NCBI RefSeq assembly: GCF_018336915.1
Contig: NZ_CP064923.1
Location: 90,001 to 122,000, forward strand
Direction: 5' to 3'
Origin: Acaryochloris marina S15
GTDB taxonomy: Bacteria > Cyanobacteriota > Cyanobacteriia > Thermosynechococcales > Thermosynechococcaceae
DNA length: 32,000 nucleotides
The position numbers and the translations under genes were made by a program. This document shows, piece by piece, positions 7,371-26,347 of this stretch; positions within the stretch are counted from its first letter, which is position 1, and every line of letters begins with the position of its first letter. Under the pieces are notes generated by a model that was not told the DNA's origin, did not search any database, and saw only the letters and a program-made list of their open reading frames with translations.

Positions 7371-8396
7371 TTACCGCTTCACCTGCCAGCGCGTTAAGTA
7401 AATAAAGAAGGGGGCACCCAAAAGAGGCATTACCAGTCCCACAGGTAGTTCTTGGGGCTGAATCACTAATCGTGCCCCAATATCAGCGATCAGCAATAAG
7501 ATGGCTCCGACAATGGCGGCATAGGGCAAAATCCAGCGGTAATCGACCCCCACCCAAAACCGCACAATATGGGGAACAACCAGGCCCACAAACCCGATCG
7601 GACCTGCGATCGCAACGGAGCCACCTGCCAACAAAATAATGCTCACCGCCGCAGTCACTTTGATCCAGGCAGTGTTCTGACCTAAGCCTTGGGCAATATC
7701 CTCACCCAAGCTTAGGGTCGTGAGCTGTTTCCCCAGGGATAGGGCAATCACCATTCCCACGGCTAGATAGGGTAAAACTTGGACCACTAAGTTTAAATCG
7801 CGGCCTGCGATCGACCCTGCTAACCAAAATCGGATCTCTTCCAAGGTTCGCTGACTCAGAATGAGAACACCAGTGGTTATGGATGACACCAAGGCCGTAA
7901 ACGCAGCCCCAGCAATCGTTAGATTGAGAGGGGTCAATCCACCTCGTCCTAGGGAACCCAGAGCATAAACTGTGATGGCTGCGATTGCAGCCCCCAGCAG
8001 GGCAAATCCCGCATAAACCTTAAGGGAAGTCGTGCCTAACCAAAACACTGATCCGACGACAGCCAATGCCGCTCCGGAATTAATCCCTAAAATGCCCGGA
8101 TCAGCGAGGGGATTGCGCGTAAGCCCCTGCATCATGGCTCCTGCTACAGAAATGGAACTGCCTACCAGCAATGCAGTAATAGAGCGAGGAATTCGAACCG
8201 TTCGAATAATCAGTTGATCCGTCGACCCATCAAAAGCTGTTAGAGCTTGATACACGGTTCTGGGACTGATATCAGCGACCCCCAGTCCTATACTGGCCAT
8301 CACACAAACCCCTAGCAGTCCGATGCCCAGCACCAAGCCCAATCCTAGTGGAAGAGGGGACTGGATCAACTGACGCCGAGCAGGAACAGTAGACAC
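7371..8396 (-). CDS. FecCD-family iron-siderophore ABC transporter permease (second permease subunit)
   Basis: 341 aa with a GTG start. It is a paralog of 265..1329 ([44 protein letters not shown]; [15 protein letters not shown]; GAPFFIYL). Confidence 0.9.
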
Positions 8397-8635
8397 TTTA
8401 ATACTTATTGATAATACTTCTTAATAATACTACATGGATATGCCTAGGATTTCTATCTATAAATCATGAGAAAAGCTTGCCTTACATGACCTACAGGTTT
8501 ATCTGTGACTTCATGTCTGTATATTACAAAAGCAATAATTTGGATCTATCTTCAACATACTATAGGAATAATTCTAATTAAGCTAAAGAGAGAATTTGTT
8601 GTCAGAGCCCCTCCAGCCGTGTTTCATACTTATTT
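8198..8635. repeat. Copy A of a segmental duplication (5' end of the permease gene plus ~240 bp upstream region)
   Basis: It aligns by eye with 11744..12243. Blocks of perfect identity include gatttctatcta, gagaaaagcttg and tctgtatattacaaaa. Homology stops at about 8635, where the IS6-type inverted repeat begins. Confidence 0.8.
8404..8430. promoter_or_regulatory. Fur-box-like A/T-rich site upstream of permease 7371..8396
   Basis: The sequence cttattgataatacttcttaataatac lies 8-35 bp upstream of the GTG start. The equivalent position in copy B has a better box. Confidence 0.4.
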
Positions 8636-10254: not shown

Positions 10255-10259
10255 GGTCT

Positions 10260-11072
10260 TTAGTCTCCAGGCAGTAGGACAGAATTGTTCATTCCCTTAC
10301 ATAACAGCGTCGTTATGAGCTGTTCCGTGTCGGAGGGTAGGAATGCAGAGGACATTGATGCGACCTGTTGCCAAAATTCTAAAATGATTTGGCTCGTCCG
10401 ACTGGGATGATCATAATGGAAAAAATGCCGTCCTTGGGGGCAGCTCCATAAACGATCGCCAGTTTTAAGCCAGGGTTGCCATTGTGCATGAGCGTGCGGG
10501 TCAACCACAGCATCATGTTCGCCATGACACACGAGTAATGAAGGCTCTACTCCTCCAGGTGCTAACTCATTGCGATGGGCCAAGGAGTGCGGAGCCAATT
10601 CAGTATCTAGGATGGTGGCTAAGAGTGATGCCAATGCCATCGTTCGGTCAGTACTCATAGCGCCGAATAGCATGGTCACCATTTGGAATAAAATTGCCTC
10701 TCGACTACAGGGTAAAAGCTCCCTCATCTTGTAGTAGTGGGCATGCCAACCTACAGATGGATTCGCCCCAACGGATAGTAAAGTTAACGATTTGACAGCT
10801 TGGGGATTGTAGCGAGCATACAGCAACCCCAATGTACCGCTGAGCCCGTGCCCTAACAGATGAATGGGCTGTGATTGATGTTGGATATCCTGGTGGAGTA
10901 ATGCTAAGGCAGTTTGTATAGAGCAAGGTTCATCCGCCGTTTGATGGTAGCTCCAAAATTTCACATGGGCATATTGCTTGAGCTGTTGGCATAAACTCCA
11001 GTCAAATTTTTTGAGGCGGGGGTTAACACATAACCAGAGTGCATCAAAAGTACTCACAAGCTCGGGGTCCAT
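10260..11072 (-). CDS. Alpha/beta-fold hydrolase family protein
   Basis: 270 aa. It has a nucleophile-elbow-like HLLGHGLSGTLGLLYA, a later acid/His region (CHGEHDAVVDP; GRHFFHYDHP), and is apparently co-transcribed with 9298..10254. Confidence 0.7.
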   Translation of the reverse strand: MDPELVSTFDALWLCVNPRLKKFDWSLCQQLKQYAHVKFWSYHQTADEPCSIQTALALLHQDIQHQSQPIHLLGHGLSGTLGLLYARYNPQAVKSLTLLSVGANPSVGWHAHYYKMRELLPCSREAILFQMVTMLFGAMSTDRTMALASLLATILDTELAPHSLAHRNELAPGGVEPSLLVCHGEHDAVVDPHAHAQWQPWLKTGDRLWSCPQGRHFFHYDHPSRTSQIILEFWQQVASMSSAFLPSDTEQLITTLLCKGMNNSVLLPGD

Positions 11073-11204
11073 AGACTTAAATCAACAAAAGCATTCTGAT
11101 GTCAGTAATAATGCCTGTCACACCTGCACCTATCTGAGATCTAGAGTATTGTCAGCGTTTATAAAAAAGGTAGTCTAGAGTTTAGCTTTTACGCTGATGA
11201 ACAA

Positions 11205-11230
11205 AGATTATTGATTAATATTCTCAACTA
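11205..11230. promoter_or_regulatory. Iron-box-like motif upstream of the hydrolase/TrxR-like operon
   Basis: The sequence is agattattgattaatattctcaacta. It contains ATTCTCAA and TTGATTAAT, the same elements seen at 29271-29297. Confidence 0.35.
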
Positions 11231-11743
11231 CAGTACAACATTTCGGCTGTGAAGGATATTTTGCACCAAAGTTTGGATGGACGGATGAATGCAGGATCTA
11301 GATCGTCTAAGCAATGAAAGTCACCATAGGCAATATTCCAGCATTCAGTCATGCCCAGCTGGCTTTGAGTGATATTCCATAAGTAAGCTGACCTTGCCCT
11401 TGTAGAGTAGGCTCCATGAGAACCACACCTACTACCTCCAACATAGGTGGTTAATTATCTTTGCCAGCAGCTAAAATGTCCCTCAACCAAAATGGGGTCT
11501 AGCAGCTTTGCGGATGAAAAATGACCGCCTTCCAGATTCACATAAGTTTGAAGTGACTAACGTCTGCTGATCTCCAGTCTTTCTAAGGTATTCATGTTAG
11601 CTGGGTGGTTTCCTTCAGGCCGAAGACAGAATTATGGAGAGCACTCACAGGCAGGAGAAGCAGAATTGAGTAGTTTGCTTGGAAGATTGCTCGACCTGGT
11701 TTTAGGGGTCAAGTTTTAGTCCGGCTGTAAAAAAATGAAAGCA

Positions 11744-12003
11744 GTTGTGAATGATTCATTGATCCGTAGACTGATTGAATGTTTTCAGGGCTTGATATAC
11801 CGTCTGATACCAATCTGTGCCTGAAGGTGTAACTCTCAAACTTGTGAAACCCAATACTGAGTTGGCTTAGAAAATAATCAAAATTACACTCTTAGGTGCT
11901 AATTGTTATGAGGACTCACACTGGCGAACAATCCTACAGCCAACATCAATCCATCTCAGTGGCACAGGGGACTAGAGCAACTGATGCCCAGCAGGAATAA
12001 CCG
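11744..12003 (-). pseudogene. Decayed FecCD permease 5' fragment (ghost paralog of 7371..8396)
   Basis: The minus strand reads ..VIPAGHQLL*SPVPL.. and ..VYQALKTFNQSTDQ*II.. These compare with [16 protein letters not shown] and [17 protein letters not shown] in the intact copy. The start codon is lost, and the fragment has stops and a ~65 nt indel. Only faint traces continue leftward. Confidence 0.65.
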
Positions 12004-12007
12004 ATAT

Positions 12008-12042
12008 TGAAATTATTGATAACGATTATTAGTAATAATGCA
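12008..12042. promoter_or_regulatory. Fur-box-like site in duplicated promoter copy B
   Basis: The sequence is tgaaattattgataacgattattagtaataatgca. Its core TGATAAC-G-ATTATTA matches the 7-1-7 TGATAAT-n-ATTATCA at 12 of 14 positions. Confidence 0.45.
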
Positions 12043-12582
12043 TAGATGTGCTTATGATTTCTATCTACGAATTAAGAGAAAAGCTTGTTGCAAAAGAATT
12101 TTAGGCTTGCCTATGGCTTCATATCTGTATATTACAAAATCAATAACTTATGTCTAATTTCAACGTAATATAAGAAAAATTGTAATTAATTTAGCAAGAG
12201 AATGAGTTTTAATACCTCCTGCACGCCCTGGCCATACTTATACAGGTGGCGATGCTAAGACCAACATTAGGAGGATTCAAATTTGACTGCTCTAGCTCTC
12301 GACAGTCACAGATTGTCTTTGAATTGTTTCAACAATGTTTTAGCGATGAATCGACTACTTTGAAAGATATAGCTCAGTTTTATTAGAGTAGACTGGCTTA
12401 TGATAGAGATTAGTGGCTATATATAAGCACTTTTGGGGCAAAATCTTGCTTCAAGAGACTATATCTACAAAATATGCTGAATATTGCCGATACTCTTCCC
12501 TCATTGTTGAAGACTCAATGTAGGAGAATACCAAATTAGTAATCCACTCGCTAACGATTCGAAATAATGTAAAACAACAACG

Positions 12583-13278
12583 ATGTCAAATATCTATCGT
12601 GGAATTGTTATTCCTGGGGAGACGGGCCTTGCTGGATGTTCTAGCCAATGGTGCTTTGAATCTTTGCAAACTTATTTCCGATGGGGACAACGAGAATTTG
12701 GACTTCGGGTTTACTATCCCCATTGGCTTCAGGGGCGACAATACCAAATTGATGTTGTGGACTGGGTGAATCAGTTCTATCCCGTCTATACCTACCAGTA
12801 TTGTTGCCAAGATGGCAGTGCCCTCACTGACCCTTCTTCATGGACGGGTGATTATCCTGATGTCGATGAAGATGAAAAACTTAAACTCGTCCAGCTCAGG
12901 ACCTTTACTAAAACCAAACACGGCTTTTACCTGGGAACTGTGAAGGATGCCTATGAACTGCTACAACAAGGCATTACCCACTGTGAACCCTATGACTACG
13001 ACACTAAGCTATTCCCCCAATCCCGACAGATGAGCAAAGTCTGTTCTATTGGTTCTGATGGAGAACGATGGGCCGCGTTCACTGATCATGGCTTTCAATG
13101 GGTTGATATTGGGCACGTCGTCCAAGCCGGCGATCCTGGTACTGACGTTCAAGAATTTCCTACCGTTCTTCAGAAATATACGGAGAAAAACTCTCCCTCT
13201 CTCCCCGTTGGCTTTAAGGTGAAAAATGTTTTAGATTCCAAGCGGGTCGCTATCATCATTGCTCGAAGTATGAGTTAA
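12583..13278 (+). CDS. Hypothetical protein (231 aa, aromatic- and Cys-rich, no signal peptide)
   Basis: A clean ATG ORF with no competing frame. I recognise no family. It lies about 340 bp downstream of duplicated promoter copy B, on the side opposite the permease ghost. Confidence 0.6.
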   Translation: MSNIYRGIVIPGETGLAGCSSQWCFESLQTYFRWGQREFGLRVYYPHWLQGRQYQIDVVDWVNQFYPVYTYQYCCQDGSALTDPSSWTGDYPDVDEDEKLKLVQLRTFTKTKHGFYLGTVKDAYELLQQGITHCEPYDYDTKLFPQSRQMSKVCSIGSDGERWAAFTDHGFQWVDIGHVVQAGDPGTDVQEFPTVLQKYTEKNSPSLPVGFKVKNVLDSKRVAIIIARSMS

Positions 13279-14400: not shown

Positions 14401-17109
14401 CTAAAACTCAAAACTATAGCGAATGCTATAAGTCCGACCTTGGCCGGGAAAGCGTCTTAATTCCTGAATACCCAGACGTTCTTGGGAACTCACAGGCACA
14501 TATTGGGTATCAAATAAGTTTTGGATGGCGAGCTGTAGCTTTCCAGGTCCTAAGTTCACAGTACTGAAGACATCGAAAACCGTGTAACCCTCTACTTGAA
14601 ACTGATCGATCGTGTCATTAAAGGCTCGATCTCGTCCCCCCACAAATAAAGCTTGAATCCGATTGCGCCAGCCGGGTAGGGTCTCATTCTCAACATAGAC
14701 CGTTGCGTGAATGGGCTGGACGTCCAGGGAGCTAAGGGCTGTAAAGATACCATCATCGTCTGGATCTGATTCGCCCTCATTCCAGGTAAAAACGGTCCCT
14801 AGGGTCCATGTGTCGCTGGGCTGCCAATCTGCGGTGAATTCAATGCCATAGTTCCGTTGAGGTGCCCGCACAATAGAAGTCAGCCCTACATTGTCAACCA
14901 CTAGCGAAGAACCTAGAGAAGAGGTACTCAAAAAGCCAGCCAGACTAAGCTTAACCGTATCAAAGTTGGCTTTAACACCCAGCTCATAGCTGTTAACTTT
15001 TTGAGGTTCTAGATTGAGGCTGTTAGCCACACTATTGCCAAATCGGGCGAGCCCTAGCGTTACCCCAACACCAGGAATCGAAAATCCTTGGGCAAAGTTT
15101 GCATAGATGTTCACTTCCTCCGTTGCTTTAAATACCGCCCCCGCATTGAAGACCACATCATCGGTATTGATCACTCCTCCTTGGATTTGGGCAGGTGGAG
15201 CAACTCCAAAATTTGCAAAGGGGCTGGCAGCATAGTCATCGACGGACAAGCGAATATTTTCGTATCGAATTCCGCCAGTGAGGGATAGCTGATCCACAAC
15301 ATCCCAGGTTAGTTGGCTAAACGCACCGATACTGCGTACGGTATAAAACGGGGATTGGGTTGCCGTACCGATCACTCGGGCCTGGCGATTGAGGTCAAAA
15401 TCTACTGGATCTAGAGAATTGAAAAACTGCTCATTCTCTTCATAGGACAGATCAGCACCCCAGAGGATTTTGAAGCGATCTGTAATGGGTGTATCGAGCT
15501 GAAACCGTCCCCCTACTTCTAGGGAATCTAAATTGGTTTGCGTAATGGCAGGCAAGAACGGGGGTGTACCAACGGGAAAGAGATTGCGAATATCACCTGG
15601 GATTTGGGTCAAATCAGTTTTGCGAAGGTAAGCCTGGGTCCGTAATTCAGCTCCAAATAAATTTTGATGGCGGTAGGTTAAATTGAGATTTTGAATGGTT
15701 TGGGACGGGCTATCATCAAACGTGATCGGCCCTACTCTCAATGCCTCAGCATCTTGCTCTCCTGGGGTTGCCAGAACAATTGGATTGGAAATAAAATCGC
15801 TGGCAAAATCGTTCTGAAAGAAGTTGTAGGAGACTTGCAGGCGTTGATCATCTGTAATATCAATACCTGCTTTTGTAAACACGTTAATGGTGTTGTTGTT
15901 CGAGGTTAAACCGTCAGGTGGAATACGATCGCCTTCACCATCAAAGATAGCGCCATCTAAATCAAATGCCGCCCCGACTAGAAAATCGAATTTTCCTTGC
16001 TTACCTGATAGGCTAGTATCCACTTTGAAGCCAAACCCATTCTCCGATAAGTGTTCAAAATCAGGGCGAAGTGTGAGTCCTAATTGTCCCTGAATGCCTT
16101 CCTCTACTGGGGCGCGAGTCAGAATATTGATGACCCCACCCGTTGCACCATCGCCAAAAACAGCGCTGGGTCCTCTAACCACTTCAATCCGCTCAATGAC
16201 GGATGGATCAATCGCGGATAACTCTGTGTCAAAGGACGCATTCCCTGTTTGGGGGATGCTATCAATCAGGATTTGAGCAGGGCGACCTCTTAAATCCTGT
16301 ACCCGAGTCCGACCATCCGCTGTTGGCGGTCCAAAGCCAGGTACAAACTTGCCCAGGGTTGAAGTCAGGTCATTGCTCAACAGGGCTTCTTGCTCTAACT
16401 GTTCACGGCTAATGATGGTGACGGCACGGGGAACATCTGCCAGGGCCTCCTCCGTTCGAGTAGCTGTGACGACAATTTCTAAATCATCCTCTTCGCTGGA
16501 GGGATTCTCCGCAGGTGAAGTTTCGGTAGAGTTTGAAGTCTCGGCTGTTTCCTGGGTGTTGATACTCAATATGAGAGTCTGAGAGTCTGGTTGAATTTGG
16601 TGACTTAATTCTGTCTGATCACCAATAACGGTCACCCGTACACGATTGATGTCTATGGGCATAACAGACACTGAGCGTATGCCTGCAATAGGGTTGTTTT
16701 CTTCGAAGATTTGCCCAGTGGATAAATTGAGCTGGGCCGCTTCAATATCTGCGATAAATGTTGACCCGCTCCCAGAAGGCGTCACCTGCAAGGCATCACC
16801 GTTGGCAACATTTAACACAATATTGACCCCACCTTCAGTTGGGACGAGGGTAATCTGCGTAATCACGGAAATGGGTACGGACTCAGTTTGGGCGATATGG
16901 TGATCAGACTTATTTGGGGACGGAGCTATTTGTTCAACCTTATAGCTCCTGCTTGTCCATTGACCCGAGTTTAATTGGGATGAGTCAAGGGTAGTTGATG
17001 GAGACTGAGATGCATGGGTAGTAGTAGCCAGAGTCCCTAGAGATGTCCCTATAACACCCACAAAAATATAAATGATATTCAAAGATGGTTTAATACTCAT
17101 TCCCCACAC
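14401..17109 (-). CDS. TonB-dependent siderophore receptor with N-terminal AMIN-like domain (apparently intact)
   Basis: 902 aa. The start is GTG at 17109 or ATG at 17100. It has a signal peptide, an AMIN-like segment (ITLVPTEGGVNIVLNV...VRVTVIGD), a plug (LEIVVTATRTEEALADVPRAVTIISRE; IEVVRGPSAVFGDGATGGVINILT) and a barrel ending YSIRYSFEF. Confidence 0.92.
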   Translation of the reverse strand: MWGMSIKPSLNIIYIFVGVIGTSLGTLATTTHASQSPSTTLDSSQLNSGQWTSRSYKVEQIAPSPNKSDHHIAQTESVPISVITQITLVPTEGGVNIVLNVANGDALQVTPSGSGSTFIADIEAAQLNLSTGQIFEENNPIAGIRSVSVMPIDINRVRVTVIGDQTELSHQIQPDSQTLILSINTQETAETSNSTETSPAENPSSEEDDLEIVVTATRTEEALADVPRAVTIISREQLEQEALLSNDLTSTLGKFVPGFGPPTADGRTRVQDLRGRPAQILIDSIPQTGNASFDTELSAIDPSVIERIEVVRGPSAVFGDGATGGVINILTRAPVEEGIQGQLGLTLRPDFEHLSENGFGFKVDTSLSGKQGKFDFLVGAAFDLDGAIFDGEGDRIPPDGLTSNNNTINVFTKAGIDITDDQRLQVSYNFFQNDFASDFISNPIVLATPGEQDAEALRVGPITFDDSPSQTIQNLNLTYRHQNLFGAELRTQAYLRKTDLTQIPGDIRNLFPVGTPPFLPAITQTNLDSLEVGGRFQLDTPITDRFKILWGADLSYEENEQFFNSLDPVDFDLNRQARVIGTATQSPFYTVRSIGAFSQLTWDVVDQLSLTGGIRYENIRLSVDDYAASPFANFGVAPPAQIQGGVINTDDVVFNAGAVFKATEEVNIYANFAQGFSIPGVGVTLGLARFGNSVANSLNLEPQKVNSYELGVKANFDTVKLSLAGFLSTSSLGSSLVVDNVGLTSIVRAPQRNYGIEFTADWQPSDTWTLGTVFTWNEGESDPDDDGIFTALSSLDVQPIHATVYVENETLPGWRNRIQALFVGGRDRAFNDTIDQFQVEGYTVFDVFSTVNLGPGKLQLAIQNLFDTQYVPVSSQERLGIQELRRFPGQGRTYSIRYSFEF

Positions 17110-17356
17110 GGCTGCAGACGACAGATGACAAAGGTGATCCAGGCCCCACGTTCAAGGTTGGGTTCTACTGGGCAGTTATTAAGAATACTTCTCAATATAA
17201 ATTACTAGAGTGGGATGCCACTTTTGGCAGGATGCTGTCTTGCAAACGGACTTTTTCTGTCTTATAGCAGGACTATTTTGTAGAAAGCAGAAAATAAGAG
17301 CGTTGCAGCAGGCGTTGGTATCGGCCCCCTCCAGCTGAGGTGGCCAGCAATTTTCC

Positions 17357-18358
17357 CTAAGGGCGATAGGTGTTGGGGTTCACCTTAAACTGCTTCGTAA
17401 AGGCGGCTACAAAGGCGGTTCGACTGGCATAACCCACAGCATGGGCCGTTTCCGTCACAGTCCATTGACCGGAGGTGAGCAGTTGGCGGGCTTTATCCAT
17501 GCGGTACTGGTACAAGTAGTTAAAGACAGAGGTGCCAAAGACGTAGCGAAACCCCTGCTTGAGTTTGCGATCGTTGATACCCACTTGACGGGCTAATTCG
17601 AGCAGAGATGGAGGATGCAAGTAGTTCTGAATTAAGATGTGACGGGCTTTGTGGATCTGTTCAACATCGGTGGGATGAAGAGAGCTAGGAAGTGCAGACG
17701 TGCTGAGGGCTTCCAATTGCAACCCCAGAAGCTCAAGGGCTTTGCCTGCAAGATAAACATTTCTGGCCATTCCTTGAAAGGGACAAGTCACCAGTTGTTC
17801 AAGCACTAAGTGCATTCTAGGTGTCGTTGGATTTTTGCAGTACAGGGGATAGGGGGTGTGAATGGGCTGGCTTAAATTCGATGATTGGGCAGCGAGGTGT
17901 TGGAGATTGAGTTGTGGAAAATGGTCCAACTCAAAATAGAGTTTTAAGCAATAGATCCGCTGATTTGCATGATATTTCTCAATTTCAGCAGTTTGAGGTA
18001 AATGGTATAAATAGTTGTTGCCAGCCTGTTCTGTTTGAGGAGTGGGTAAAGCTTCATTGGTTACAACTGCCTGCCCTGATAGATAAAAACTAGCGGTCAG
18101 AGGCATCTGGGGAGAATGGACCTGAATGCGATTGACATGGTTATAGTTCAGTTCAACATCAGCAATATCTAAGATTAGGCCTGGCTGTAAGAGGTGTCGT
18201 CGTATATATCCACTGCCAAACTGGACCGGAAGTGCAATACATTGTTCATCCTGAGTGATATGGGGCAGGGTATCGGAGTCACGATTGCTCTGTAGAAAAG
18301 CAATAATATCTGCGTTGGTGAGGGTTTTAGGCATACCCATGGTGGCGACATCCATCAC
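17357..18358 (-). CDS. AraC-family transcriptional regulator (paralog of 6289..7281)
   Basis: 333 aa. The C-terminal AraC HTH domain reads LLELARQVGINDRKLKQGFRYVFGTSVFNYLYQYRMDKARQLL...TAHAVGYASRTAFVAAFTKQFKVNP. Confidence 0.9.
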   Translation of the reverse strand: MMDVATMGMPKTLTNADIIAFLQSNRDSDTLPHITQDEQCIALPVQFGSGYIRRHLLQPGLILDIADVELNYNHVNRIQVHSPQMPLTASFYLSGQAVVTNEALPTPQTEQAGNNYLYHLPQTAEIEKYHANQRIYCLKLYFELDHFPQLNLQHLAAQSSNLSQPIHTPYPLYCKNPTTPRMHLVLEQLVTCPFQGMARNVYLAGKALELLGLQLEALSTSALPSSLHPTDVEQIHKARHILIQNYLHPPSLLELARQVGINDRKLKQGFRYVFGTSVFNYLYQYRMDKARQLLTSGQWTVTETAHAVGYASRTAFVAAFTKQFKVNPNTYRP

Positions 18359-18442: not shown

Positions 18443-19534
18443 TTAAGGGTCGCACTGCACGACTTGTGTGACTTCGTATTGCCATTGCTCTTGGAGGGGC
18501 ATGGATTCATTCGCTTTTGCTGCTGATTTCACTGCCGTTTTGACCCTGCCTTTGGCTGCCAATCGGACCCGATAGCGACTGATTTGTGTGGTCTTGGGCA
18601 AGGCAAATTGGAGGTGCACCTCGACCCAATCGGCTTCTTGGGTCCATTGTTCTAACCACATCTGCAACAGTTGAAACGGAATCAACCGCAGTAAAGGATA
18701 TAAAAACTGCTTTATCCCTTTCAAGCCTTTTTGGGTGGTCCGTCCTGATTTGGGGTAGTCCAACCAAGCCCATCCTTCTCGCTTCCAGATTTCTCCTTCT
18801 GCCATCTGTTCAAATTTCTGTAAGCCAGACCAACCCCGATAATAAGGGCGCAGACTAGACACGTCTCCTTGGCGCTCAATGAGGGAGGGCAAAATTGCTG
18901 GATCAAGATGTCCCCAAAATTGTCCTGTTGGCAAATCTAGCAAGGTCGGTGCAAACTGATGGCCGCCAAAATGAGTGGCTTGCCAGACTCTGAGAGACTG
19001 AGGATGATGACCATAGTCTCGCTTAAGTTGGCGATAAATAGGGGTTCCATACCGGCCACAAGCCAAGTCTACTTGGGTATGGGTACAGACCAATAGCTCC
19101 CGAATATCGGTAGTGTCCTGCTGATATTGGTGATAGTGCTTCAAGTTATTAGGTTGTTTCAATAAAGACTGCAGCAACGCCATCGTGAAGTTGAGCCCTT
19201 CGGTTTCTGGGATTAAAAATTCCTGCTTGGCATACTGGGCAAACTGAGAACTAGGACGATGGTAGTAGAGCACCCGTGTCCAGCCTGTTTGGGAATAGTC
19301 GTGATCAGTTGCGATCGCAATCGGTCTGATCAAAATTCCTCTACGGAAAATCAGTTTCTTGAATAGGGGAATCAAGGGTTTAACTTGAGGATTCTCAACT
19401 AAAGAACCGGACCAGGGCTGTTTCATCTCAGTAATCAGCCAATGATCCGTTTTTGCTGCTGTACCCAGAGGATCTACACCATTCGCTTTAGCAATATCCG
19501 CACAATAGCGACAGTTCATGAGTGGTTGATCCAT
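18443..19534 (-). CDS. Sucrase/ferredoxin-like (thioredoxin-like [2Fe-2S]) protein with CX8C...HXGGH motif and a C-terminal extension
   Basis: 363 aa. VCTHTQVDLACGRYG gives C-x8-C and ATHFGGHQFAP gives H-x-G-G-H, the ligand pattern of the Suc_Fer-like / Apd1-Aim32 class. It is the first gene of the second siderophore cluster. Confidence 0.8.
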   Translation of the reverse strand: MDQPLMNCRYCADIAKANGVDPLGTAAKTDHWLITEMKQPWSGSLVENPQVKPLIPLFKKLIFRRGILIRPIAIATDHDYSQTGWTRVLYYHRPSSQFAQYAKQEFLIPETEGLNFTMALLQSLLKQPNNLKHYHQYQQDTTDIRELLVCTHTQVDLACGRYGTPIYRQLKRDYGHHPQSLRVWQATHFGGHQFAPTLLDLPTGQFWGHLDPAILPSLIERQGDVSSLRPYYRGWSGLQKFEQMAEGEIWKREGWAWLDYPKSGRTTQKGLKGIKQFLYPLLRLIPFQLLQMWLEQWTQEADWVEVHLQFALPKTTQISRYRVRLAAKGRVKTAVKSAAKANESMPLQEQWQYEVTQVVQCDP

Positions 19535-19954
19535 AGAAGTATTGTCTAGCAGAGAAAAACGATATCTATTCTCAATAATCTCAGTTTAAGGCGATATATG
19601 ATTTCTATATTGAGAATCTTTTTAGAAAAATTAGACTGATTTTTTAACGAAAGATATTGAACTGAGGCAAAGTAGAGTTTGATATTTCTATTCTCGATCA
19701 ATTTTTTCACCCATCACTGATCCATACATTTGCCAGTTACTGCGGGATGTAGTTATCTATCAATGGATTGTCTGAGATAGCCTAATTTAAAGACTTTTAG
19801 GCGTTTGAAGTCTGCTTTTGATCTTTGATGAACTGTACGACGAATATGTTTAGTCCAGTATTTATTTGCATGAAAATATAAATAAATATTGAGATGTTGC
19901 AGTTTTTCTTCGACTTTCACAACTCATATTTCCACAAAACGCAAGTCCTGATAA

Positions 19955-19973
19955 ATTGAGAATTAGTCTCAAT
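19955..19973. promoter_or_regulatory. Palindromic operator ATTGAGAATTAGTCTCAAT (iron-box-like), 35 bp upstream of pcb/isiA-like gene 1
   Basis: It is a TTGAGA-ATTAG-TCTCAA inverted repeat. Near-identical copies lie at 24376-24394 and 25066-25083. More ATTCTCAA/TTGAGAAT half sites occur at 19567 and 19609. Confidence 0.5.
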
Positions 19974-20007
19974 AGAATATGCAAGATTAGTCTGGAGAAT
20001 AATCTTT

Positions 20008-21054
20008 ATGCAAACCTATGGACAGCCCACAGTTAACTATCCTTGGTATGCGGGAAATGCTCGTTATACAGGGTTTAGTGCCCAGTTCCTAGCTGCGCAT
20101 ATCGGCCAAATTGCGTCGATGTGTTTCTTCGCTGGGACTTTTACTATCTATGAACTGTCTCGCTACGATCCCGATTTGCCGTTATATAGCCAAAACTTTG
20201 TTTGTCTACCACAATTAGCTCGCGAAGGGTTTGGGGTAGGGGCTGGCGGGGTAATTGTAGACACTTACATCTACTTCGCCATTGGCATGATTCACCTGTT
20301 TGCAGCGGCCGTGTTTGCGTCAGGGGCTTTGTACCATATTGTGACCGGACCTAAGAACTTTGCGGATAGCGAGTTTCCTGGGGTCAAACGGTTTCATTTC
20401 GAGTGGGATGATTTTGAAACCCAGGGCAGAATTCTGGGGCATCATCTCATTTTCTTGGGGTTAGGAACCTTTTTGTTTACGGGTTGGGGAGCCACTCATG
20501 GCTTCTATGATCCCAGTATTGGAGAGGTCAGAGCAGTCGTACCTGAATTTAATATCGTCAGACTGTTCAAATATGGATGGGCTGTTCCGGGTTTCAATCC
20601 GTTCTTTGTCGATAACCTAGAAGATGTGCAGATGGGCCACCTCTTTGTTGGCTTTCTCTATACTCTGGGCGGTGTTTTCCACATTTTGGTTAAACCCTGG
20701 CCCTATACGGATCGGCTATATCGCAAAAATGCTGATGCTATCTTGGCCTATGCCTTGGGTGGACTCGCCTTTTTAGGCTTTATTGCCTGTTACTTTACTG
20801 CTGTTAACGAAATCACATTTCCGCCGGAGTTCTTTGGTCCTGTCCTAGAGCTAAGGTTTGTATTTGCCCCGTATTTTGCTGACATCATTGATACAGCAAA
20901 CGGTATGCATACCTCCCGTTTCTGGATTTGCAATTTCCATTTCTATTGGGCTTTCTTTTGCCTTCAAGGCCATCTCTTTCACGCCTTGCGTGGGATGGGC
21001 TTCGATTTCCGAGATGTCCCCAAATATTTTGAGCAATTCGCTTCCGAAGTTTAG
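20008..21054 (+). CDS. IsiA/Pcb-family (CP43-like) chlorophyll-binding antenna protein
   Basis: 348 aa. The N-terminus MQTYGQPTVNYPWYAGNARYTG is characteristic of IsiA/Pcb. It has six hydrophobic helices, lacks the long CP43 loop E, and has the C-terminal motif CLQGHLFHALRGMGFDF. Confidence 0.9.
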   Translation: MQTYGQPTVNYPWYAGNARYTGFSAQFLAAHIGQIASMCFFAGTFTIYELSRYDPDLPLYSQNFVCLPQLAREGFGVGAGGVIVDTYIYFAIGMIHLFAAAVFASGALYHIVTGPKNFADSEFPGVKRFHFEWDDFETQGRILGHHLIFLGLGTFLFTGWGATHGFYDPSIGEVRAVVPEFNIVRLFKYGWAVPGFNPFFVDNLEDVQMGHLFVGFLYTLGGVFHILVKPWPYTDRLYRKNADAILAYALGGLAFLGFIACYFTAVNEITFPPEFFGPVLELRFVFAPYFADIIDTANGMHTSRFWICNFHFYWAFFCLQGHLFHALRGMGFDFRDVPKYFEQFASEV

Positions 21055-21327
21055 GCGCGGGGGAATATTTCCCAACGCCTAGCTAGTGCTGCTATAGGAG
21101 TCCGTCTTTGCTGGACTCATCGTTGGTCCAGCGTTAGTCAGTCGTTCCAGCTTATCCATCCTGGCGAATTTTTGAGGTGGATAGATCCCTTGCTTGAGGG
21201 AGACCTTAGGCTATCTATTGCTTTCATTGCCGGGTGAGCGATATTGGCTGGAACTTTTAGGACAAATTGTTCGAAACACACCAAGGTTTTGATTTTTAGT
21301 AACTATTCCCTATCGAGGATTTTATTT

Positions 21328-22389
21328 ATGACAGCATCTTTAACAAGACGCGACAAAATGGACAGGTCCCAGCTCACTGCGGGGACGGCAAGCCTGAGCG
21401 GTTATGAAGCGGAATGGTGGGCAGGCAATGTCCGCAACACTGATTTTTCTGGTACGCTTCTGGGTGCTCATTTATGCCATGCAGCTCTAATGAGCTGTGT
21501 TCCCGGCGCTTTTATTATTCAAGAGGCTGCTCGCTTTCAACCCGGCATTCCATTGTCGGAGCAAGGTATGGTCTTTATGCCTCACCTGGCGGGTTTAGGT
21601 ATAGCCGTGGGCTCAGGTGGAGAGGTTCTGAGTACGTATCCCTATTTTGTGATTGGCGTTCTGCACTTCTTTGTGGCGGCATTCTGTTGTGCGGGTGGGC
21701 TATTTCACACCATTGCTGGAGAGGCGAATCTAGGAGATTACCCTGAAGGTAGCTGGGCCGCTCAATTCGATTATGATTGGGACGATTTTGAGTCCACCTC
21801 CTCTATTTTGGGCCATCACCTGCTTTGCTTAGGGGTTGCTTGTCTATTGTTTGCAGGCAATGCTGCTTATGGGAATGGCTTATATGATCCCTTGGTCGGT
21901 GAAGTTCGTCAGATTACTCCCAACCTGAATCCGATTACCTTGCTCGGTTACTTATTCGGATTTGCGAATGGAGAATGGACGATTTTGGGAATGGCGGCGG
22001 TTAACAATATGGAAGACCTAGTCGGGGGACATTTCCTGGTTGCCATTGTTGATATTGCAGGGGCTGCCTTTCATATCATTAATAAGAAACCTACGGCCTT
22101 TTTCAAAAATCGGCTAATCTTTTCCTTCCCTAATGGAGGTTTGGTGCGCGCTGGTATTTGCAATAGCGAAGCTATTCTGTCTTATAGTGTGGCTTCAGTG
22201 GGTTTTATTGCCATCAGTTCTGCCATTTTTACCCAGTATTGCGATATCGCTTTTGCTCCTGAGTTTTACGGCGTTGATCGGTCTGGGGCCGCTTCCATCC
22301 AGCTCATTCTGGGAGTGAACTGGATGGTCGTCGGGGGGCTATGGCATAGCCTGCGTGGCGAAAGGCTTCATGCCCTCAAGAATAAATAG
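21328..22389 (+). CDS. Divergent IsiA/Pcb-family chlorophyll-binding protein
   Basis: I place the start at ATG 21328 (gagga 8-12 nt upstream) rather than the track start 21244. Supporting motifs are YEAEWWAGNVRNTDFSGTLLGAHLCHAAL, FDYDWDDFESTSSILGHHL (compare FHFEWDDFETQGRILGHHL in gene 1) and the helix VI variant VVGGLWHSLRGER. Confidence 0.8.
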   Translation: MTASLTRRDKMDRSQLTAGTASLSGYEAEWWAGNVRNTDFSGTLLGAHLCHAALMSCVPGAFIIQEAARFQPGIPLSEQGMVFMPHLAGLGIAVGSGGEVLSTYPYFVIGVLHFFVAAFCCAGGLFHTIAGEANLGDYPEGSWAAQFDYDWDDFESTSSILGHHLLCLGVACLLFAGNAAYGNGLYDPLVGEVRQITPNLNPITLLGYLFGFANGEWTILGMAAVNNMEDLVGGHFLVAIVDIAGAAFHIINKKPTAFFKNRLIFSFPNGGLVRAGICNSEAILSYSVASVGFIAISSAIFTQYCDIAFAPEFYGVDRSGAASIQLILGVNWMVVGGLWHSLRGERLHALKNK

Positions 22390-22393
22390 TTCT

Positions 22394-22590
22394 ATAGGCC
22401 AGCATTGAGATATAACGTTGTTCGAGTAAGGAATAACCATATCTGATGCTGGTCTATGCATTTTGTCAGTGACTCTTTTCTCTCGCTCGCGCAGCCTTGC
22501 TCACAATCTGTGCGAACGAGAGAAGACCTATAGATTTCCACTTTTATTTGTAGCAAGGAGTGCTGTGACTCAGTCAGTTCTTGCTACAAA
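22394..22590 (+). other. Three consecutive stem-loops downstream of pcb gene 2 (terminator, structured RNA or MITE-like remnant)
   Basis: Hairpin 1 pairs 22394-22413 with 22439-22457 (~18 bp, one mismatch and a bulge). Hairpin 2 pairs 22477-22494 with 22508-22525 (16 of 18). Hairpin 3 pairs 22547-22557 with 22580-22590 (perfect 11 bp), and its loop contains the palindrome tgactcagtca. Confidence 0.4.
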
Positions 22591-22631
22591 GTTTTCGTTG
22601 AACCGTTATTAATCATTTTTTGAATAGAATA

Positions 22632-23000
22632 ATGCAACTCAATACCCCTTATTTTAAGGACACGGCTGACTTGGCCGATGGTGTATTTAGTTCTCGTGCT
22701 TGGTTAGCCAATATTACTTACTATTTGGGCTTTTACTGCCTACAAGGGCACTTATTCCATAGCTTACGAGCGATGGGCGTAAAGTTTGAAGAGATCCCTG
22801 AGGCGTGCGCTCTCAACTTTGTCCAACAGCCGTCAATCATTACGGGAGCGGCTCCAACGATTGACGCTGCTTTAGACATAAAAGCAACTTTCCAAGAGGT
22901 GCCTGAAGAAGAAGATTATGCAGGGCTGTTTTTGCGCCACCACAGGATGCCATTGAACATTGCTCCAGCGATAAAGAGCATAAATGCCGGAATATTGTAG
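22632..23000 (+). pseudogene. Orphan C-terminal fragment of an IsiA/Pcb gene (helix VI only)
   Basis: MQLNTPYFKDTADLADGVFSSRAWLANITYYLGFYCLQGHLFHSLRAMGVKFEEI aligns with the last ~60 aa of gene 1 (FAPYFADIIDTANGMHTSRFWICNFHFYWAFFCLQGHLFHALRGMGFDF). An in-frame stop at 22599 leaves no upstream helices. The 3' tail overlaps the convergent gene 22916..23527. Confidence 0.5.
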
Positions 23001-23527
23001 AAAGGGATGTGCTGTGCTGCAGTCCCAAAGCCAAATGCCAAGGTAAAAATGAGCCAAATATACCAGAGCCCCAGGGTATACAAAATGCTCAGTCTTTTAG
23101 GAACATGGGCTTGATATAGATAATCAAAAATTTCGGGTTTCACCAATTCTGTGACTGAGAACAGCACCATAATGATCCAGAGTGGAGCGGTCACTAGCCA
23201 TGTTGTCCAAGAGCAAGTTTCCCCTAGTTGGTAGTACAGAACAATTTGGTAGAGATGGATGAGGTGAGATAGGGTCAGGGCTAGCCATAGATAGCTGCGA
23301 TTGCTTTTGAGCCATTTCCCTAGTTCATCCGTTGTGGCTGTGAGGGGCTGGGTTACAAACACTAGCAAAAATGGAATAGCGGTTGTTAATGAACTCAACC
23401 TTAGAGCAGTGAGAATGTTTTCGCTGGTTATCTTGGGATAAAGGGCCAAACCTGATGCAAGCAGCATAAATACTGTCGAGATTAAAACACCAGTCCAGCC
23501 TAAGGATGACTGTTTGTGGGTTCTCAT
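22916..23527 (-). CDS. Hypothetical integral membrane protein (about 6 predicted TM helices)
   Basis: 203 aa, strongly hydrophobic, with an ATG start. It shows only weak resemblance to YedZ/MsrQ-type heme-b membrane proteins (LALTLSHLIHLYQIVLYY), so no function is assigned. Confidence 0.6.
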   Translation of the reverse strand: MRTHKQSSLGWTGVLISTVFMLLASGLALYPKITSENILTALRLSSLTTAIPFLLVFVTQPLTATTDELGKWLKSNRSYLWLALTLSHLIHLYQIVLYYQLGETCSWTTWLVTAPLWIIMVLFSVTELVKPEIFDYLYQAHVPKRLSILYTLGLWYIWLIFTLAFGFGTAAQHIPFYNIPAFMLFIAGAMFNGILWWRKNSPA

Positions 23528-23799
23528 AGCCTGGAATTTAGATAAAATCGACCGATAGTTTTGTTTAAGTGATGATATTGGCTTTTGAAAGCTCTATTGT
23601 ATCGTTTTTCTCTTTTTATATCTAAAAATCTGCTGATTAAGTTCTAGTCAACGGGTTGAGAGTATGGGAGATCTGTGGTGGGTTGCGAGGGTCTCCGACT
23701 GGCCTTTGGCCATCGCACAATTGATACCCTCCAGTTGCTATCGTTCTGCAGCAGTCGCAAATTTAGCTATAAATCATCGAATTCGCGGTTGAAAAGAAT

Positions 23800-23833
23800 A
23801 CCCGCAGAATCTTACTGAGAAGATTCTGCGGGT
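23800..23833 (-). terminator. Rho-independent terminator of petE
   Basis: A perfect 14 bp stem (ACCCGCAGAATCTT / AAGATTCTGCGGGT) with a 6 nt loop lies 70 bp downstream of the petE stop. On the minus strand it is followed by attcttttc. Confidence 0.7.
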
Positions 23834-23905
23834 ACAAGCTTTTGAATAGGGAAAGAGCGTTGAAACCGTTGAAATGATTCAATAATCACCTGCACGGATG
23901 TGAAT

Positions 23906-24304
23906 TTAGCCTTGAACTGTAATAGTGCCAGTCATTCCTGCGCCCCTGTGGGGTTCACAGTAGAAAGAATAGCTGCCTGGAGTGGCATCGGCAGGGAAAG
24001 TTACATCAAATCCACCGGACATAGCAAAGGCCTGATGAGACAAAGGACCGACATCACCAGCAGAATTACCCGGATCAAACACCACATTATGGGGAGGTAC
24101 ACCTGCCACTTCGTAATGCACCGTATCTCCTGGAGCAATCGTCACTTCAGTCGGTTCAAACACTAGCATGCCTGTAGAAGAACCCATTTGAATCGTGGAT
24201 GTTGCAGCAAGAGCAGTTGAGCCTGGCCAAAACCCACCGATTACCAGCAGTACTGCCATTAAGGTGGTCGTTAGACCCAGACGTAAGGGGTTAAGGTAGC
24301 GCAT
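23906..24304 (-). CDS. petE: Plastocyanin
   Basis: The start is taken at ATG 24304 (ggaga upstream), giving the signal peptide MRYLNPLRLGLTTTLMAVLLVIGGFWPGSTALA. The copper ligands are present in PPHNVVFD and YSFYCEPHRGAGM. Confidence 0.92.
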   Translation of the reverse strand: MRYLNPLRLGLTTTLMAVLLVIGGFWPGSTALAATSTIQMGSSTGMLVFEPTEVTIAPGDTVHYEVAGVPPHNVVFDPGNSAGDVGPLSHQAFAMSGGFDVTFPADATPGSYSFYCEPHRGAGMTGTITVQG

Positions 24305-24375
24305 TGGTTTTCTCCAAAGCTGAAATAAACAAGTACGACAAGTTGTCATACTTCACAATACCATTGCTGCAGATA

Positions 24376-24394
24376 ATTGAGAATTAGTCTTAAT
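24376..24394. promoter_or_regulatory. Palindromic operator copy ATTGAGAATTAGTCTTAAT upstream of petE
   Basis: It matches 19955-19973 at 18 of 19 positions and lies 72-90 bp upstream of the petE start. Confidence 0.5.
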
Positions 24395-24592
24395 TACTTA
24401 AATGGCTGGAGTAGAAAATAGTGATCGAATGCCTGATATAGGCCTGAATTTTTTAACCTGGGTGCCTCCAATGCGGGCGAGGAGCAGGCCACTGGTTGGC
24501 AAAGTCAAACTGGGTCTGGCATAGAAGGGCTGATGAACATTCCATTGTCTTGTGGTGAAGGGGCTGTCAGCAGGCATAATTTGAGCCAACGA

Positions 24593-25039
24593 TCAGGGCG
24601 ACTCATGAGCGTTATCTGACTGTCCAAATAAGGCGTAAACATCTTGAAAAAACTGTTCTAGCTTTTTTCTAGCCAGTAATGTCGGAGGCGATTTACCATC
24701 AAAGTCCCAATCATTCGTTGTAGAACAGCATCGCCAATAGGGTTCGGTATGGGTATAGCCCATTGATTCAATACCAATGATGCGAGCGTCGGCAGATTTA
24801 GGACTCTCGGAAAAGCGGATTTGGGTCAGGACACAGTGACTATGGCAAGTGGGATGCCAACCTGGAAAATGAAAGCACAGATCAATCGAGTGAGGATCGA
24901 TCAAGTATCGGAGGGCAGGGTCATGGATCCAGGGACTCAAATCTGGGTGGGCATCCAGAAATTGCTCTTTGAATAGGGAGACAATGCGAGAGATTTTGCT
25001 GAGCATCTCATAGGTCTCTGTATGGTCAGTAGCATTCAC
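24593..25039 (-). CDS. Hypothetical protein (148 aa) with a His/Cys cluster
   Basis: GTG start with ggaga 9 nt upstream. It contains the motif CFHFPGWHPTCHSHC, and I recognise no family. An operator copy lies 27 bp upstream. Confidence 0.55.
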   Translation of the reverse strand: MNATDHTETYEMLSKISRIVSLFKEQFLDAHPDLSPWIHDPALRYLIDPHSIDLCFHFPGWHPTCHSHCVLTQIRFSESPKSADARIIGIESMGYTHTEPYWRCCSTTNDWDFDGKSPPTLLARKKLEQFFQDVYALFGQSDNAHESP

Positions 25040-25065
25040 AGCTCATTTCTCCAGCCAACTAATTT

Positions 25066-25083
25066 ATGAGATTAATTCTCAAG
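25066..25083. promoter_or_regulatory. Third operator copy (minus-strand reading CTTGAGAATTAATCTCAT)
   Basis: About 15 of 17 core positions are identical to the other two copies. It lies in the divergent region between 24593..25039 (-) and fda (+). Confidence 0.45.
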
Positions 25084-25306
25084 AAATAAAGATCTTTGCC
25101 GACAATTTTCACTTCAATTTCATACTGTTAGATTTATATTTTTCGTGTTTTTACAGATATTTCAGCAATATATCAAGGCTTTAGACTACTTCCTGATGGA
25201 CTCAATGCCTGAAAAGAACCCTTGACAATTCAAATTATTATTGACATTATATATCAATAAGAAAGAGATTTTTTATTTCATCTCAGCCCAATCTAGGAGG
25301 TTCGAT

Positions 25307-26347
25307 ATGAGTACCTATACCCAAGAATTAAGGGCCACTGCAAAAGCTTTGGTGGCAAGAGGTAAGGGCATCTTGGCAATTGATGAGAGTAATGGCACTT
25401 GTAATAAGCGATTTGCTCAGCTAAGCATTCCTACGACCGAAGAAAATCGGAGAGCTTATCGGGAGTTAATCCTAACAACACCTCGACTTTCTACTTACAT
25501 CAGTGGTCCCATTTTGTTTGATGAGACCATTCGACAGACGACTAGAAACGGTAAATCATTTGTACAAGTGATTACTGAAGCTGGCATGATTCCTGGGATT
25601 AAAGTAGATACCGGGGCCAAAGATTTAGCAGCTCGCCCTGGTGAAAAAGTAACGGAAGGATTAGATGGCCTGCGAGATCGCATTGCTGAGTACTACGGTA
25701 TGGGGGCTCGTTTTGCTAAATGGCGGGGTGTGATCACTATTGATAATGGCATTCCCAGTCAAGCCTGCATTGATGTGAATGCGCAGGCTTTGGCCCGATA
25801 TGCTGCCCTCTGTCAAGAAGGGGGTTTAGTTCCCATCGTCGAGCCAGAAGTCTTAATTGACGGTGACCATACCTTAGAACAGTGTTATCAGGTCACAGAT
25901 CGCACCCTCCATACCGTGTTTGGTCAGCTCTATGATCAAGGGATTGCTTTTGATCAAATGATTCTGAAGCCCAGCATGGTGGTTGCGGGCAAAGATTGTC
26001 CCCAACAGCCCAGTGTGGACGAGGTTGCAGAGGCAACGATTAATTGTCTTCGTAAAAATGTGCCTGCTTCGGTTGCAGGAGTGGCCTTTTTGTCGGGTGG
26101 CCAAAGTGCTGAACGATCTGCTGCCCATCTCAATGTTATGAATGCCCGGTATGCAGAGATTTGTCCATGGCCGGTCACGTTTTCCTATGCGAGAGCGATC
26201 CAGCAGCCGGCATTGGAACATTGGCGAGGTGAGAGTCAGCGCGTAACCGAAGCTCAACAGCGGCTGTTGCATCGTGCCAAATGTAATAGTGCTGCCCGAT
26301 TGGGTGAATATAGCTCTGAAGTTGAGCGAGAGCTGGCTCTCGTCTAA
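25307..26347 (+). CDS. fda: Class I (Schiff-base, metal-independent) fructose-bisphosphate aldolase
   Basis: ATG at 25307 with AGGAGG at 25295-25300. Class I signatures are present: GILAIDESNGT, VPIVEPEVLIDG, and the Schiff-base Lys in MILKPSMVV. Length is 346 aa. Confidence 0.93.
   Translation: MSTYTQELRATAKALVARGKGILAIDESNGTCNKRFAQLSIPTTEENRRAYRELILTTPRLSTYISGPILFDETIRQTTRNGKSFVQVITEAGMIPGIKVDTGAKDLAARPGEKVTEGLDGLRDRIAEYYGMGARFAKWRGVITIDNGIPSQACIDVNAQALARYAALCQEGGLVPIVEPEVLIDGDHTLEQCYQVTDRTLHTVFGQLYDQGIAFDQMILKPSMVVAGKDCPQQPSVDEVAEATINCLRKNVPASVAGVAFLSGGQSAERSAAHLNVMNARYAEICPWPVTFSYARAIQQPALEHWRGESQRVTEAQQRLLHRAKCNSAARLGEYSSEVERELALV

Follow-up and report, generated by a model that had tools for sequence, protein, structure and literature searches.

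What single factor, if any, connects the near-identical AT-rich palindromes that precede functionally diverse genes in Acaryochloris marina S15? The question is raised by a stretch of 32,000 nucleotides (nt) of contig NZ_CP064923.1 (positions 90,001 to 122,000), hereafter the window, in which copies of this palindrome lie upstream of a gene for a Pcb/IsiA-like chlorophyll-binding antenna, of the plastocyanin gene petE and of a gene for a hypothetical protein. An initial annotation, made from the sequence alone, had proposed that one iron-responsive repressor governs these genes, which it regarded as unrelated. The analysis described below indicates that an iron-responsive repressor of the Fur family, most likely the FurA/Fur orthologue, probably uses the palindrome as its operator, which would mark genes for iron uptake and iron sparing.

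An inverted repeat confined to intergenic DNA

The palindrome, ATTGAGAATnATTCTCAAT, spans 19 nt with 7-1-7 geometry and is found at positions 19955, 24376 and 25065, where the three sequences first reported were recovered exactly (ATTGAGAATTAGTCTCAAT at 19955-19973, ATTGAGAATTAGTCTTAAT at 24376-24394 and CTTGAGAATTAATCTCAT on the minus strand at 25066-25083). It comprises two half-sites, ATTGAGAAT-n-ATTCTCAAT, and can be read either as a 9-1-9 repeat or as the 7-1-7 core TGAGAAT-n-ATTCTCA. The AT-rich 7-1-7 inverted repeat of 15-19 base pairs (bp) that characterizes a Fur box is therefore present, and the three best copies depart from a perfect palindrome by 1, 2 and 2 mismatches. A first search pattern, TGAGANTNNTCTCA, displayed no enrichment and was discarded, the right spacing being 7-5-7 of the core, which is equivalent to 9-1-9.

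The 8-mer TTGAGAAT/ATTCTCAA occurs nine times in the window (11220, 14686, 19391, 19568, 19610, 19956, 24377, 25075 and 29447) compared with 1.93 ± 1.35 expected, a count reached by none of 100 shuffles. Seven copies are intergenic, as had been counted by eye, and two are coding (14686 and the overlooked 19391) rather than one; five of the eight positions originally listed were exact, the deviations ranging from 0 to 2 nt. An idealised 19-mer, ATTGAGAATNATTCTCAAT, was then scored on the ~8.6 kb of non-coding DNA, with 300 dinucleotide-preserving shuffles of the same segments as control. The number of sites observed, relative to the shuffle mean, was 3 vs 0.00 at ≤2 mismatches, 4 vs 0.02 at ≤3, 6 vs 0.17 at ≤4 and 12 vs 1.19 at ≤5, and at every threshold the observed count was reached by 0 of the 300 shuffles. 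The ~23.4 kb of coding DNA in the window contains no 19-mer site at ≤5 mismatches; all 12 sites are non-coding.

All box sites are intergenic and lie upstream of genes for a TonB-dependent receptor, FecCD, YbiX/PiuC, Pcb/IsiA, plastocyanin and a fructose-bisphosphate aldolase (fba), with predicted -10 hexamers abutting or overlapping the boxes. In the pcb promoter, the box fills the spacer just 5' of a TAGAAT -10-like hexamer (19973-19978) and ends 34 nt before the ATG at 20008. The box of the hypothetical gene ends 25 nt before the GTG at 25039, overlapping a TAAATT -10-like hexamer (25061-25066), while that of petE ends 71 nt before the ATG at 24304. The proposal that the boxes stand upstream of start codons is thus sustained, with these distances replacing the earlier ones. 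The pcb box is identical at 19 of 19 positions in the diverged strain represented by locus L009, where the whole intergenic region averages 87% column identity.

Relation to cyanobacterial Fur boxes

According to passages of Gonzalez et al. (2014, PMC4005646; repeated in PMC4788461), the FurA consensus of Anabaena sp. PCC 7120, obtained from DNase I footprints, is AAATAAATTCTCAATAAAT. The 9-nt half-site ATTCTCAAT is identical to the core of this consensus, bearing out the resemblance to published FurA boxes noted in the initial annotation. When a FurA matrix built from the 77 sites in Table 1 of PMC4005646 was scanned over both strands of the window, 8 of the 14 top hits fell on boxes (25069, 29272, 8403, 19949, 29441, 19605, 17174 and 29128), a result that supports a Fur identity without being decisive. 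In contrast with this matrix, which is deliberately non-palindromic, the inverted repeat described here is far more symmetrical. Passages of Riediger et al. (2021, PMC8634477) describe the Fur box of Synechocystis 6803 and 6714 as palindromic and AT-rich, 21-23 nt long and with one nucleotide at its centre; it is usually located between -100 and +50 of the transcription start and sometimes occurs as twin boxes in bidirectional promoters. The element in the window shares with the Anabaena and Synechocystis boxes the AT-rich palindrome, the single central base and the 7-1-7 arrangement, as well as its occurrence in the predicted promoters of isiA-family, TonB-dependent receptor and iron ABC transporter genes and the presence of twin or divergent boxes. 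Term searches did not reveal petE, class I fba or the conserved hypothetical gene among the Fur targets in the passages of PMC4005646 (Table 1 included) and PMC8634477 that they covered, and the putative targets described here extend beyond those found in these papers. The operator is probably of a known kind, a cyanobacterial Fur box, and the regulation of isiA-type genes by Fur, like the Fur box itself, belongs to textbook knowledge; what is new is which genes carry the box and may thus be added to the regulon. The classical 7-1-7 Fur box, which Baichoo and Helmann are said to have formulated in 2002 as TGATAATnATTATCA, displays the same length, symmetry and AT-richness and is a repressor site overlapping iron-uptake promoters, as the present box would be, while the present half-site has G instead of T at position 4 (TGAGAAT), a cyanobacterial variant.

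The genes of the window constitute an iron island that includes two TonB-dependent receptors, two FecCD permeases, periplasmic binding proteins, two AraC-type regulators, a YbiX/PiuC-type Fe2+-dependent dioxygenase, two Pcb/IsiA genes and a fragment of a third, plastocyanin and a class I aldolase. Passages of a study of Trichodesmium erythraeum IMS101 (PMC12090762) describe the induction at low iron of isiA and isiA-like genes, of plastocyanin, which takes over from cytochrome c6, and of class I fbaAI, which takes over from the Fe2+-dependent class II enzyme. The same passages name nine genes with putative Fur boxes, isiAB among them; petE and fbaAI are not in that list. The gene set in the window is the same as in this response (isiA/isiA-like, class I fba and plastocyanin); in the window, however, these genes form a physical cluster, with a box in every predicted promoter. 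The Pcb/IsiA-like antenna, plastocyanin and class I aldolase thus belong to a known iron-limitation substitution set and cannot be described as unrelated; the aldolase gene, which shares the 25040-25306 intergenic region, had been overlooked. A term search of a low-iron RNA sequencing study of Acaryochloris (PMC6007379) revealed no mention of pcb, plastocyanin or aldolase in the text searched.

The consensus match, the iron-gene targets and the footprints retained in diverged relatives make a single Fur-type iron repressor, as first suggested, the best-supported explanation, and from them we infer which protein would bind and in which direction it would act. When iron is sufficient, an Fe2+-Fur dimer would bind TGAGAAT-n-ATTCTCA on or against the core promoter and block RNA polymerase; when iron is scarce, Fur would leave the DNA and the regulon would be derepressed together. 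One group of putative members would serve siderophore uptake (TonB-dependent receptor, FecCD permease and YbiX/PiuC-type dioxygenase) and a second group iron sparing (Pcb/IsiA-like antenna, copper plastocyanin in place of haem cytochrome c6, class I aldolase and the conserved protein).

The 7-1-7 AT-rich geometry is common to all Fur-family boxes, and published work describes cross-recognition between the Fur paralogues of Anabaena. The box could accordingly be bound by another paralogue, Zur (FurB) or PerR (FurC), with the genes answering to zinc or peroxide and not to iron. Swapping a metal-dependent class II aldolase for a class I enzyme would also be logical under zinc limitation, and the copies at 8407 (ATTGATAAT) and 12015 (ATTGATAAC) have a TGATAA half-site, which is Zur-like or classical. 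Nevertheless, control by Zur or PerR appears unlikely. The strong copies contain the TGAGAAT/ATTCTCA motif typical of the FurA consensus, the targets nearby are iron genes (siderophore receptors, FecCD and the IsiA family) and the same gene set responds to iron in Trichodesmium (PMC12090762). In addition, the zinc-regulon genes by which a Zur box would be recognized (znuABC, COG0523 and ribosomal paralogues) are absent from the window.

Even less probable is that the palindrome constitutes an activator site for a non-Fur iron-stress regulator, either of the CRP/FNR type (e.g. IdiB) or one of the two AraC-family proteins encoded within the cluster (6289-7281 and 17357-18358). TTGAG-N7-CTCAA is readable as a CRP/FNR-like inverted repeat, and the petE box is perhaps upstream of the -35, a typical activator position. 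However, the centres of TTGAG and CTCAA are 12 bp apart, compared with the 11 bp or 9-10 bp generally observed in CRP or FNR sites, and direct repeats are the usual targets of AraC-type proteins. No usable description of the IdiB site was obtained from a literature search. Activation by such a protein would leave the exact 9-mer identity with the FurA consensus unexplained, and the overlap or contact of the box with the predicted -10 at pcb, the conserved hypothetical gene and fba places it where a repressor would bind.

A dispersed short repeat, a chance palindrome or an RNA hairpin without regulatory role is highly improbable in spite of the near-identity of the three best copies (a 20-nt family) and the lower G+C content of intergenic relative to coding DNA (42% vs 47%), as shuffles retaining intergenic dinucleotide content never reach the observed counts and the distance from box to start is fixed across lineages and genomic contexts. 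The copies are alike over ~20 nt only, with unrelated flanks and no larger repeat unit, and a dispersed repeat or mobile element was rejected because similarity ends there. An RNA hairpin or terminator was also rejected: the hairpins predicted are of low stability (-2.9 to -6.1 kcal/mol) and the boxes do not keep one orientation with respect to the genes, and the element therefore acts at the DNA level. The boxes are covered by no family in an Rfam scan of the window, whose sole above-threshold match is IsrR inside the second pcb gene.

Several points weigh against the assignment to FurA. The boxes of the three cyanobacterial Fur paralogues are related, and the sequence does not by itself tell which paralogue binds; a Fur gene is absent from the window. 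The enrichment was computed within the window, the data consisting of the window and ~95 fetched loci (identified by L numbers), and the idealised consensus was derived in part from the very sites scored. The Anabaena matrix is noisy as well as AT-rich, and its 30 best hits do not include the petE box. Finally, the petE box may lie upstream of the -35, depending on the real -10, and repression at petE is therefore less certain than at pcb.

Juxtaposed Fur-type and PetR operators at petE

The start codon of petE is most likely at 24304 rather than 24349, because a 132-amino-acid product is called in relatives, a Shine-Dalgarno sequence (GGAGAA) is located at 24310-24315 and the N-terminus is that of a signal peptide. 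A second palindrome is situated between the Fur-type box and the ribosome-binding site. Its core, GACAACTTGTC at 24337-24347 on the gene strand, 29 nt from the box on the downstream side, fits the published petE-type PetR motif GACA-N3-TGTC, a pattern with 2 matches in the window vs 0.47 expected. PetR motifs are described as GACN5GTC, extended to GACA-N3-TGTC in petE promoters (Garcia-Canas et al. 2021; bioRxiv 10.1101/2020.07.31.226407). In the absence of copper this BlaI/CopY-family protein represses petE and activates petJ, while in the presence of copper PetP degrades PetR (bioRxiv 10.1101/2020.07.31.226407). Neither petR nor petP is encoded in the window. The petE promoter of the window thus shares its inverted repeat with the PetR/PetP switch, to which the Acaryochloris clade adds the upstream Fur-type box. 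The PetR site of Synechocystis sits between the -35 and the -10. Since the PetR operator is kept, copper control appears to be retained and the Fur-type box is a lineage-specific addition. An iron-type operator at a copper-controlled gene had been noted in the initial annotation, but a switch from copper to iron is not supported.

All petE orthologues compared, distant ones among them, retain the PetR operator, which is present in L009, L010, L012 (Acaryochloris sp. IP29b_bin.148), L092, L013 and L014 and degenerate in L093, L094 and L095. The Fur-type box is located 72-73 nt from the ATG in L009, L010 and L012, and its retention in L010, where petE has a different genomic neighbourhood, indicates that the box travels with the gene. 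Five petE upstream sequences are alignable from the box downstream only, with conservation of the box, the PetR palindrome and the ribosome-binding site; 5' of the box the DNA does not align. L011, a more distant member of the clade, has a full box 115 nt before the called start, and in L093 and L092 (67-68% identical) only a half-site is kept. Among the 80 petE upstream regions listed, a sample and not a census of species-representative cyanobacterial genomes, mostly Nostocales, with A. marina genomes not among the matches listed, only the Acaryochloris region has a site at ≤4 mismatches; the best sites of the other 79 have 5-9.

Two promoter readings are possible. The -10 could be TATTGT at 24355-24360 (TATGGT/TATGAT in relatives), with the proximal half of the box, TTCTCA, serving as the -35 and the PetR site lying just downstream of the transcription start. 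Alternatively, by analogy with Synechocystis, PetR could bind between the -35 and the -10 with the Fur box just upstream. As judged from their positions, both operators crowd the core promoter of petE under either reading.

From the adjoining operators we infer a combined control of petE by iron and copper, full expression probably requiring both that iron is low (Fur off) and that copper is available (PetR degraded). It is tentatively proposed, at slightly less than even confidence, that Acaryochloris petE gained a Fur operator beside an ancestral PetR site, that iron and copper together set the choice between plastocyanin and cytochrome c6, and that the same regulon switches the aldolase class and drives the hypothetical protein. 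The juxtaposition of Fur-type and PetR operators is the most interesting point of the locus, although nothing in it is mechanistically unprecedented. The choice between plastocyanin and cytochrome c6 has so far been credited to copper (PetR/PetP) alone: in the part consulted of a 2026 review (PMC13421787) PetR is the only petE/petJ regulator given, and no account of the petE/petJ switch being tied directly to Fur in cis was found in the portions of the literature covered. If the proposal is true, the petE promoter would offer a testable case of a cyanobacterium weighing iron against copper for its photosynthetic electron carrier.

The plus-strand flank of the petE box at 24393-24450 (ATTACTTAAATGGCTGGAG, followed by a GTG at 24421) resembles an inverted promoter and 5' untranslated region of the conserved hypothetical gene. 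A 6-codon open reading frame (ORF) and a terminator-like hairpin (24431-24443 plus a T run) follow. The segment is not conserved in L009; it could be the relic of a promoter duplication that brought the Fur box to petE, or it could encode a small divergent Fur-controlled transcript.

The predicted divergent aldolase promoter and further features of the window

The boxes at 25065 and 25240 define 25040-25306 as a divergent promoter region with one box per gene. The predicted fba promoter consists of a -35 TTGACA (25222-25227), a 17-nt spacer and an extended -10, TG-n-CATTAT. This region was aligned across four lineages, in which the identity of the hypothetical proteins falls as low as 50%. Conservation is limited to three islands: one covers the ribosome-binding region of fba, another the box nearest to fba together with the -35 beside it, and the last TTGAGAAT of the 25065 box with the ribosome-binding site of the hypothetical gene. 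The fba box is degenerate in the window, while the L008 copy, ATTGATATATATTCTCAAT, has a perfect right half; TTGAGAAT of the 25065 box is invariant in the four lineages (proteins 50-80% identical) and its flanks diverge. The divergent pairing of the two genes is kept in L008, L009 and L095, the last of which also has petE, ferritin, pcb and ABC-transporter (solute-binding protein and permease) genes in the neighbourhood. The box nominates the AM1_3371-like family, which has this pairing with class I aldolase in three lineages, as an iron-stress gene. The ratio of class I to class II aldolase is used as a field marker of iron stress, and the box is a candidate direct mechanism for the switch. 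In L095 (7930-7990; hypothetical protein 50% identical) the promoter contains two direct repeats of CTAATTGAGAATnGTTTGAAC, each with a perfect ATTGAGAAT half-site and a degenerate second half, which suggests recognition of tandem half-sites.

The hypothetical protein had been termed a His/Cys-rich orphan, yet a full HMMER scan places it in a conserved cyanobacterial family with 86 representatives at 50% clustering. Named members are all hypothetical and nearly all cyanobacterial (Argonema, Aerosakkonema, Prochloron, Leptolyngbya and Pseudanabaenales, with one labelled Candidatus Gracilibacteria), and the 148-amino-acid protein is identical to that of Acaryochloris sp. 'Moss Beach'. The Fe-responsive Tery_1686, which lies beside Trichodesmium fbaAI, could be a homologue, but the named members include no Trichodesmium protein. 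Residues M1, P36, W37, S51, D53, L71, W102, G115 and P119 are invariant in the family; His and Cys residues are not conserved, leaving a metal-binding role unsupported. The structural model (pLDDT confidence score of 88) comprises a helix, a five-stranded sheet and a further helix in an alpha/beta arrangement. A fold search of this model against the PDB gave no match (best E = 0.11), and neither Pfam nor NCBIfam gave a hit.

The second Pcb/IsiA-like gene, which lacks a box of its own, may be co-transcribed with the first. The Rfam family IsrR (RF01419), the antisense RNA of isiA, matches its minus strand at 21778-21952 with 56.7 bits (gathering threshold 52), and a weaker match of 29 bits is located at 20404-20575 (-) inside the first pcb gene; these matches may reflect mere coding-sequence homology with isiA or a real antisense regulator. 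A 126-amino-acid ORF at 22620-23000 (+) is the C-terminal fragment of a third pcb/isiA-like gene, which is intact in L009 (407 amino acids, 4115-5338); in the window, the truncated ORF overlaps the 3' end of a gene for a 203-amino-acid membrane protein.

The coordinates of the boxes and associated genes are collected in Table 1.

Table 1. Fur-type boxes, the PetR operator and associated genes in the window; mismatches are relative to the idealised palindrome.
Feature	Position	Strand	Sequence	Remarks
Fur-type box, FecCD permease	8407..8425		ATTGATAATACTTCTTAAT	3 mismatches; directly upstream of gene 7371-8396 (-)
Box, hydrolase / pyridine-nucleotide-disulfide oxidoreductase pair	11210..11228		ATTGATTAATATTCTCAAC	4 mismatches; 138 nt upstream of genes 9298-11072 (-)
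Fur-type box, TonB-dependent receptor	17178..17196		ATTAAGAATACTTCTCAAT	2 mismatches; 69 nt upstream of gene 14401-17109 (-)
Two exact half-sites, sucrase/ferredoxin-like gene	19558..19627		ATTCTCAAT (19568-19576); ATTGAGAAT (19609-19617)	Upstream of gene 18443-19534 (-)
Fur-type box, pcb/isiA-like promoter	19955..19973		ATTGAGAATTAGTCTCAAT	1 mismatch
Pcb/IsiA-family chlorophyll-binding antenna gene	20008..21054	+		348 amino acids; Pfam PSII 4.2e-47; NCBIfam TIGR03041 367 bits (cut-off 335)
Second Pcb/IsiA-like gene	21325..22389	+		~353 amino acids
petE, plastocyanin precursor	23906..24304	-		132 amino acids, signal peptide; Pfam Copper-bind; NCBIfam plastocyanin equivalog 97.9 bits (cut-off 87.85)
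PetR-type copper operator	24331..24353		AAGTATGACAACTTGTCGTACTT	Palindrome with 10-bp arms; core GACA-N3-TGTC 24337-24347
Fur-type box, petE	24376..24394		ATTGAGAATTAGTCTTAAT; gene strand ATTAAGACTAATTCTCAAT	2 mismatches
Conserved cyanobacterial hypothetical protein	24593..25039	-		148 amino acids; 90%-identity cluster includes AM1_3371 of A. marina MBIC11017
Fur-type box, conserved hypothetical gene	25065..25083		gene strand CTTGAGAATTAATCTCATA	4 mismatches
Degenerate box, class I fba	25240..25258		ATTGACATTATATATCAAT	5 mismatches; overlaps -10 CATTAT (25245-25250) of predicted promoter
Class I (metal-independent) fructose-bisphosphate aldolase	25307..26347	+		Pfam Glycolytic 7.8e-132; NCBIfam FrucBisAld_I 510 bits
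Boxes and half-sites, YbiX/PiuC-type Fe2+-dependent dioxygenase	29124..29459		29124-29142, 29272-29290, 29441-29459	Upstream of gene 28316-28993 (-)

The box of the TonB-dependent receptor gene has an orthologous counterpart in L009 (10724-10742), where one of the two half-sites of the sucrase/ferredoxin-like gene is also kept and the other is changed by a single base. Boxes of this kind also occur near ferritin and M75-peptidase genes in L011, a more distant locus. The box may serve as a cis-element for defining the iron regulon across Acaryochloris strains, which are known to vary in iron gene content.

The window is 98.5% identical over 16.4 kb to CP071717.1 (Acaryochloris sp. 'Moss Beach'). 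Its siderophore-uptake cluster contains an IS630-type DDE_3 transposase gene (4842-5927, +) between a TonB-dependent receptor gene and an AraC regulator gene. A 231-amino-acid ORF at 12583-13278 (+) displays a weak Pfam match to the Thoeris inhibitor Tad6 (28.8 bits, cut-off 27) and is preceded by 1.5 kb without a long ORF (11073-12582), in which two box-like sites are located (11210 and 12015). At the distal end, positions 29500-32000 are internally repetitive, with several self-similar blocks (blastn vs L001) and low-complexity minus-strand ORFs with SPDSPD-type repeats; the window lacks an intact counterpart of the 488-amino-acid gene called in the corresponding region of CP071717.1.

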